From Escherichia coli (GTDB lineage: Bacteria; Pseudomonadota; Gammaproteobacteria; Enterobacterales; Enterobacteriaceae): a stretch of 205 bases of DNA. The translations under genes were made by a program, and so were the position numbers. A model generated the notes under the pieces. The model made no database searches, was not told the DNA's origin, and saw only the letters and a list, made by a program, of their open reading frames with translations. The stretch lies in NCBI RefSeq assembly GCF_003334335.1, contig NZ_QOWQ01000245.1, one strand, 5' to 3'. Shown here piece by piece: positions 1-205 of the stretch. Numbering within the stretch: position 1 is the first letter of the stretch; each line of letters begins with the position of its first letter.

Positions 1-205
1 GACCCGGGCGGACCGCCGGGGCCGAAAGGTGACACCGGCCCACGTGGAGAGGCCGGACCACCCGGACCACAGGGTCCCGCAGGCCCTCGGGGAGAAACCG
101 GCCCCGCAGGTCCTGCGGGTCCCGCAGGCAGTGTTCCGGATGCCAGCACATCACAGAAAGGTGTTGTACAGCTGAGCAGCGATACCAACAGCGATGATGA
201 AACAA
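1..205 (+). CDS. Internal fragment of a phage/prophage tail-fibre protein with a collagen-like stalk (Stf-like); partial at both ends
   Basis: Frame +1 (codons starting at nt 1) has no stop codon across the window and translates to [68 protein letters not shown]. The other two forward frames contain stops (TGA at 30-32 and 195-197 in frame 3; TGA at 173-175 in frame 2). The product is biologically coherent: a strict Gly-X-Y repeat followed by a KGxVQLSS-type motif that I recognise from phage side-tail-fibre proteins. No start or stop codon is present, so the gene boundaries lie outside the window. Recognition of the motif is from memory, not a database search. Confidence 0.8.
72..129. repeat. 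Exact 13-nt direct repeat gggtcccgcaggc (72-84 and 117-129), 45 nt apart and in frame; the core cccgcagg also occurs a third time at 103-110
   Basis: Direct string comparison: nt 72-84 and nt 117-129 are both gggtcccgcaggc. The 8-mer cccgcagg is found at 76-83, 103-110 and 121-128, encoding Pro-Ala-Gly each time. The 45-nt offset is a multiple of 9. Confidence 0.9.
103..119. repeat. Inverted repeat / near-perfect palindrome cccgcagg-t-cctgcggg (8-nt arms, 1-nt spacer)
   Basis: The reverse complement of nt 103-110 (cccgcagg) is cctgcggg, which is exactly nt 112-119. It arises from encoding Pro-Ala-Gly-Pro-Ala-Gly with alternating synonymous codons (ccc gca ggt cct gcg ggt). Its existence is certain; a functional role is not demonstrated. 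Confidence 0.85.
136..204 (+). other. Coding segment for a conserved phage tail-fibre motif immediately after the collagen-like stalk ([23 protein letters not shown])
   Basis: The translated segment fits the pattern ASTxxKGxVQLSSxTNSxxET, which I recall as the conserved motif of lambdoid side-tail-fibre (Stf-like) proteins, commonly ...ASTTxKGIVQLSSATNSTSET.... This window carries a variant with V for I and the acidic stretch DTNSDDE in place of ATNSTSE. G+C falls to about 49% over nt 131-205 by hand count. Confidence 0.65.

Follow-up and report, generated by a model that had tools for sequence, protein, structure and literature searches.

Base composition and the collagen/Phage_fiber_2 domain boundary in a side tail-fibre gene of an Eib-type Escherichia coli prophage

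The side tail-fibre gene and its parts

The window, i.e. the whole stretch of 205 nt that was analysed, matched five E. coli chromosomes at 100% identity. Matches of 94-96% were obtained in 34 further genomes and in nine phage records, and in all 39 window-matching genomes at least 80% of the window was covered. In strain JE86-ST05 the window occupies nt 562-766 (residues 188-255) of a side tail-fibre (stf) gene of lambdoid type, which encodes 478 aa and is located at L001:5440-6876 within an Eib-type E. coli prophage. The gene order at this locus is K-I-J-lom-stf-tfa(DUF4376), followed by a YadA-like gene of Eib type, and the locus adjoins tRNA-Ser and hyaA. Frame +1 of the window is open from end to end and comprises 43 Gly-X-Y codons followed by 25 non-collagen codons. 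The family phrog_366 (tail fiber) was co-linear with stf residues 1-469, and the N-terminal domain aligned by sequence to the solved tail-fibre chain 9e7m. Pfam analysis of the full gene revealed the following domains:

aa 1-134, outside the window: PF08400 (phage_tail_N, PfN), model positions 1-134 of 134, E=2.1e-42
aa 135-230: PF01391 (Collagen), run 1, with Pfam matches at 135-190 and 191-230; the Gly-X-Y run covers aa 136-230
aa 236-277: PF03406 (Phage_fiber_2, Pf2), full model (positions 1-42 of 42), E=7.8e-16, 57.8 bits
aa 288-385: PF01391 (Collagen), run 2, a Pfam match; the Gly-X-Y run covers aa 288-386

A Pfam scan of aa 387-478 gave zero matches, so no homology to PfC (PF06820) was found in the C-terminal region. 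The preliminary description had read the window as a tail-fibre stalk followed by a motif, and this reading was right according to the full-gene context, phrog_366 and the Pfam models Collagen and Phage_fiber_2. The window itself contains the following parts:

nt 1-129, + strand: end of the first collagen run (Col1), 43 Gly-X-Y codons from the frame 1 translation and PF01391; G+C 77.5%
nt 1-24, + strand: register interruption (G)DPGGPPG, with GG at nt 7-12; GDPGGPPG is gene aa 187-194
nt 73-83, 100-110 and 118-128, + strand: three copies of the 11-nt repeat GG(T/C)CCCGCAGG, from a repeat search
nt 130-138, + strand: linker Ser-Val-Pro between the collagen run and Pf2, from the codon alignment and a linker survey of 16 genes
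nt 139-205, + strand: start of the Pf2 repeat (PF03406); G+C 49.3%; the motif ends at gene aa 277, outside the window

At nt 100-128, alternating synonymous Gly-Pro-Ala codons give rise to palindromes that overlap one another and are perfect or nearly so (CCCGCAGG-T-CCTGCGGG-T-CCCGCAGG). As single-stranded DNA, nt 95-145 folded at -12.9 kcal/mol (z=-2.2; 6 of 200 shuffles were as good), and the palindromes may promote replication slippage beside the boundary between the collagen run and Pf2. A function of the hairpin as a terminator or regulatory signal was rejected, as no T-run follows it, its position is mid-gene and the palindromes derive from Gly-Pro-Ala codons. An RNA element at the boundary was likewise rejected; an Rfam scan (E<=1) gave three matches of 16-18 bits, compared with gathering scores of 46-70.

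Frame +2 of the window contains an ORF of 48 aa. Alternative frames were nevertheless dismissed, frame +1 being fixed by the full-gene context and by the matches to Pfam and PHROG. On the minus strand, frames 1 and 3 were stop-free across the window and frame -3 is itself collagen-like. The open antisense frames result from the near self-complementary coding of Gly and Pro (GGN/CCN), and such collagen-like antisense frames are a trap for ORF callers.

The DNA of L002:5440-6876, from strain JE86-ST02, was identical to that of L001:5440-6876, but the CDS calls differed between the strains. One intact CDS of 478 aa is annotated in JE86-ST05, whereas in JE86-ST02 there are two 'incomplete' pseudogene fragments and the collagen part carries no annotation. 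This discrepancy is an annotation inconsistency, as the sequence is the same. The prophage ends of the two loci were otherwise identical and parted from locus nt ~10763, after a YkgJ-like gene. Beyond this point lay tRNA-Ser and hyaA in JE86-ST05, but in JE86-ST02 an integrase gene together with a DUF4224 gene, which points to tandem insertion of a second element at this site.

The fibre family and a proposed architecture

Architectures EPclA to EPclD were defined by Ghosh et al. (2012; PLoS One 7:e37872, PMC3368898), who reported the order Col-Pf2-Col, collagen (Col) lengths differing by multiples of three residues and the interruption of the collagen register in these fibres. Judged at the sequence level, the window gene is of the EPclC type, with PfN, Col-Pf2-Col, the GDPGGPPG break and no PfC. 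The EPclC type includes ORF-401 of P-EibA (AF151091; 479 aa), the C-terminus of which is unrelated to PfC (PMC3368898). ORF-401 and the window gene share PfN, Col, Pf2, Col and a non-PfC C-terminus, as well as the J-lom-stf-tfa-eib context. Their Col lengths differ in whole triplets, and orf-401 was 94% identical to the window with gaps included. The window gene differs from ORF-401 in length (478 vs 479 aa), in being without a 63-nt collagen block and a 9-nt segment encoding 'SVA', and in having a longer second collagen run (Gly-X-Y at 288-386 vs 311-385).

The Col-Pf2-Col core was also found in the EPclB-type fibres of Stx phages (933W Z1483 and Sp5 ECs1228) and in the fibres of loci L004, L005, L015 and L020. 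In this group the collagen likewise abuts Pf2 via a six-residue linker and the GDPGGP break is present, whereas the N-terminal half and the tail type are different, with an adaptor/DUF6682 gene upstream and no J or lom. Across the junction, nucleotide identity of L004 and L005 to the window gene was ~70%. Their annotations ('phage tail fiber C-terminal domain-containing protein' in L004 and 'tail fiber protein' in L005) suggest that the C-terminal region is different.

Repeats of PF03406 also occur in lambda Stf, which carries PfN and Pf2 (PMC3368898), in P2 gpH and in Mu gpS, and the right side of the window lies within a full-length repeat of this family. Residues 109-153 of the Mu tail-fibre protein S (PDB 5yvq, 8ju3, 9ki1) aligned by sequence to the Pf2 segment; the literature located on the fold of Mu gpS (5yvq) deals with the chaperone part only. 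The P2-type fibres L006-L008 differ from the window gene in that their Pf2 is in tandem and outside collagen.

Gly-X-Y repeats are shared with Scl1/Scl2, BclA, Lcl and the streptococcal prophage hyaluronidase, and those of stf scored with PF01391, with NCBIfam models of collagen-like adhesins and with PDB chains of collagen and BclA. Assignment to the LPXTG collagen-like adhesins Scl1/Scl2 and Lcl (NCBIfam) was rejected, the scores (135, 102 and 99 bits) falling far short of the respective cut-offs (325, 500 and 400). Going by these scores, the likeness to bacterial collagen-like adhesins is at the level of the repeat only and the stf product is not a member of that family.

A trimeric state, a collagen triple helix and a hinged stalk have been shown biophysically for EPclA and EPclB only, and in EPclA the hinge lies between coiled coil and collagen (PMC3368898). 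The layout of the stf product is a PfN anchor, a short Ala/Glu helix, collagen run 1, Pf2 with an Ala-rich helix, collagen run 2 and a C-terminal receptor-binding domain. Three chains would form a collagen triple-helical stalk up to residue 230, as expected from PMC3368898. Pf2 and the Ala-rich helix that follows would separate two segments of the stalk as a small non-collagen node, and this node, by analogy with the EPclA hinge, may serve as a flexible joint or as a point of chain registration.

Size and cause of the G+C step

An abrupt step in base composition had been described in the window from hand counts of about 77% and about 49% G+C, and these counts were exact (0.769 in nt 1-130 and 0.493 in nt 131-205; 0.668 overall). 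When the window was split at nt 129/130, G+C was 0.775 on the left (nt 1-129) and 0.493 on the right, and in 30-nt sliding windows it was 0.67-0.80 up to nt 130 and 0.47-0.53 thereafter. The maximum-likelihood single change point was placed after nt 129 (LLR 8.85), inside the interval of nt 125-140 first proposed for it, and corresponds to the last Gly of the Gly-X-Y run (codon 43, nt 127-129). The window has just 205 nt and the change-point likelihood was flat from nt ~125 to 149 (LLR 8.53 at 147), as might be expected if base composition had fluctuated by chance in a short sequence. However, only 8 of 5000 base permutations reached the observed LLR, the step falls where one protein domain gives way to the next, and a like step was present at each collagen boundary examined, making chance a scarcely credible cause.

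Partitioning by codon position showed where the step resides. G+C at codon positions 1, 2 and 3 (GC1/GC2/GC3) was 0.93/0.86/0.535 on the left side and 0.56/0.48/0.44 on the right side. At positions 1 and 2 taken together, 77 of 86 bases on the left but 26 of 50 on the right were G or C (Fisher p=2e-6), while GC3 was similar on the two sides (23/43 vs 11/25, p=0.62). As the window has only 43 + 25 codons, the GC3 test within it is low in power when taken alone, and the weight is carried by the tests on larger segments and several genes. GC3 was also similar between the whole of Col1 and the whole insert (p=0.74) and between both collagen runs and the non-collagen remainder of the gene (p=0.48). 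Five genes, independent lineages of only ~70% DNA identity among them, provided ten collagen boundaries; the same G+C step, up or down, was present at 10/10 of these and a GC3 difference at 0/10 (p=0.31-1.0). Resampling of synonymous codons, given the amino acids and the codon usage of neighbouring prophage genes, predicted a G+C of 0.796 on the left and 0.542 on the right, so about nine-tenths of the step is set by the protein sequence. The suggestion in the preliminary description that amino-acid composition explains most of the step was thereby borne out, and the comparison of third positions proposed there gave similar values at all three scales.

The step is very probably the reflection, at the level of nucleotides, of a border between protein domains in a coding sequence that is continuous and has been inherited vertically as one unit. 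As far as nt 129, each triplet reads Gly-X-Y with mostly Pro, Ala, Arg and Glu at X and Y, for which reason codon positions 1 and 2 are nearly all G or C to the left of nt 130. From nt 130 onwards, Ser, Thr, Asp, Lys, Val, Gln and Asn bring in codons that are A/T-rich at these positions. Composition at synonymous sites is equal on both sides and therefore offers no hint that their origins differ. The Col/Pf2 boundary is an ordinary, already published domain boundary with no sign of foreign DNA, and horizontal transfer is unneeded as an explanation for a G+C step of 28 points at the edge of a collagen-like repeat. Partitioning by codon position settles such steps fast, which calls for caution in composition-based scans of phage genes. 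The significance of this result is modest and goes little beyond housekeeping.

The only real GC3 discontinuity in the stf gene was observed upstream of the window, at L001:5440-5664 (codons 1-75), where GC3 was 0.75 (0.68 in J) compared with 0.50 in the other 403 codons (Fisher p=8e-5). Should any module joint in this gene be marked by composition, it lies within the PfN anchor domain or directly downstream of it. The lowest GC3 of the locus, 0.39, was found in the YadA-like Eib-type gene downstream of tfa (L001:7833-9296), while I, J, lom and tfa had values of 0.57-0.68.

Homologues, indels and joints around the boundary

Module exchange among stf genes is long established (PMC3945230). The boundary could thus be a recent recombination joint at which a collagen part and a Pf2 part from two different phages were joined, the G+C step then reflecting the base composition of the donors. 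The stf genes are well-known mosaics (PMC3945230; PMC3368898) and several clear joints were found within the family. Opposed to this is, besides the equal GC3, the co-linearity of close relatives across the boundary. Searches with the left 129 nt alone, with the right segment alone (at least 95% identity) and with the whole window found 39, 39 and 39 genomes, respectively, i.e. no close relative was one-sided. In a codon alignment, seven relatives showed 0-1 differences over the 114 nt before the boundary and 1-3 over the 171 nt after it, and all close relatives were 98-100% identical on both sides. None of the 60 sampled records had a similarity end-point near gene nt 690/691, and all mapped joints were located elsewhere (gene nt 444, 576-590 and 985-1061). 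One observation speaks for exchange in this region. Presence or absence of the 63-nt block, which inserts at window nt 72/73, and Gln or His at gene aa 271 occurred in all four combinations, so that the four-gamete test failed. A crossover or recurrent slippage has taken place somewhere in an interval of ~180 nt that includes the boundary; the 63-nt indel is slippage-prone. A recent joint at the boundary itself is very unlikely, and the earlier proposal that the boundary could join modules of different origin found no support as far as recent exchange is concerned.

The window and its relatives did differ by in-frame indels. At the boundary the window allele reads GGC AGT GTT CCG, while 11 of 11 other close relatives read GGC AGT GTC GCC AGT GTT CCG. 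The window allele thus is without 9 nt (AGTGTCGCC, encoding Ser-Val-Ala, 'SVA') at nt 129/130, in frame and between direct repeats of AGTGT. The short linker, giving a span of 205 nt, was present in 5 of the 39 genomes. As the linker of more distant fibres is likewise six residues long, this longer form is probably ancestral, and the window allele probably arose from it by a recent slippage deletion. This repeat-flanked 9-nt deletion, exactly at the boundary, is the only local novelty relative to the published architecture and, like the four-gamete result, counts against the domain-boundary explanation. The 63-nt block, which encodes seven Gly-X-Y triplets (GPAGQ(T/P)GPKGDKGEPGATGPA), was present in ~26 of 39 related alleles and absent from the window, and record spans with and without it were 192 and 129 nt. 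The block has the 11-nt repeat GGTCC(G/C)GCAGG on both flanks (in locus L010, GGTCCGGCAGG and GGTCCCGCAGG), which is consistent with repeat-mediated gain and loss of stalk length. The variation of stalk and linker length by repeat-flanked in-frame indels is of modest interest for host-range engineering and typing of phages.

Similarity at a greater distance showed a different picture. The search for homologues sharing one side of the junction but not the other, which found none among close relatives, did find distant homologues with one module alone. The Pf2 segment matched 944 further E. coli genomes at 60-80% DNA identity, with matches starting at window nt ~138-139, and by itself it matched phrog_988 at residues 231-281 and Mu gpS in the PDB. 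In the P2-type gpH fibres L006-L008, Pf2 is in tandem and there is no collagen, and in L003 the best-matching copy of Pf2 (copy b) follows a globular segment. In the sister stf genes of L016 and L017 the collagen runs straight through with no Pf2. In L004 and L005, collagen with the GDPGGP break stands directly before Pf2, with linkers SAANVA and SAANVV and ~70-74% nucleotide identity. On these alignments, Pf2 is an old separable module and its border with the collagen run an old domain junction, kept in at least two prophage types.

It is accordingly conceivable, with a chance slightly short of even, that Pf2 and the helix that follows are a cassette once inserted into, or lost from, a continuous collagen stalk by illegitimate or repeat-mediated recombination. 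Such an origin is compatible with the domain-boundary explanation of the G+C step and would credit the idea of modules of different origin on a deep timescale. The 60-80% matches that begin at the Pf2 edge, the tandem or globular settings of Pf2, the continuous collagen of L016 and L017 and the separate matches to phrog_988 and Mu gpS all argue for it. Against it stands the conservation of Col-Pf2-Col in at least two prophage types with equal linker length (SVASVP vs SAANVA); any insertion or loss of Pf2 would therefore be old. Also, no compositional trace is left, GC3 being equal.

Joints that could be mapped were found within the collagen-coding runs. In a data set of 421 places in 150 E. 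coli genomes, with end-points taken from 60 sampled records, whole-gene similarity started or ended at gene nt ~444 (most records), 453, 461, 576, 590, 985, 1028 and 1061, in all cases inside the runs at gene nt 406-690 and 862-1158. The preliminary description had called tail-fibre genes mosaics; this holds for the family, although its joints were located within the collagen runs and away from the boundary. Three independent joints (L003, L015/L020 and L016) were located within ~30 nt of the GDPGGP break (window nt 7-35), and the breakpoints at gene nt 576-590 correspond to window nt 15-29. The variant in L003 was similar up to the break and then continued straight into a Pf2 repeat. The fibres of L015 and L020, which belong to a different tail type, were ~97% identical to the window gene from just after the break (window nt ~15) to the gene end and carried the same tfa, and L015 also carried a YadA-like (eib-type) gene downstream. 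L016 diverged seven codons past the break. An anchored codon comparison of 12 genes showed GDPGGP to be a conserved island in otherwise divergent collagen runs. The clustering of real joints at GDPGGP within collagen-coding repeats is likewise of modest interest for phage host-range engineering and typing.

The collagen-coding repeats would supply homology both for the exchange of distal modules and for drift in stalk length. A more specific reading, which we put forward only tentatively as it is rather unlikely to hold, is that the GDPGGP break (nt ~7-35) is a preferred crossover island. Here Col1b-Pf2-Col2 and the receptor-binding domain, together with tfa and eib, would be swapped between lambdoid prophages and those of a different tail type, and the 9-nt and 63-nt indels would then tune the length of linker and stalk. 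If this were true, the register break would be kept at least partly as a recombination linker, beyond structural reasons. In L015, whose fibre belongs to another prophage type, the Eib-type YadA-like gene accompanies the distal fibre module.

The variant at L003:1374-3287 is a 637-aa stf product encoded at the same tRNA-Ser/hyaA site. Its layout is Col1a, Pf2 right after the GG-Pro break, a globular insert of ~170 aa, a second Pf2 and Col2, and recombination between the two Pf2 copies could collapse or expand this architecture.
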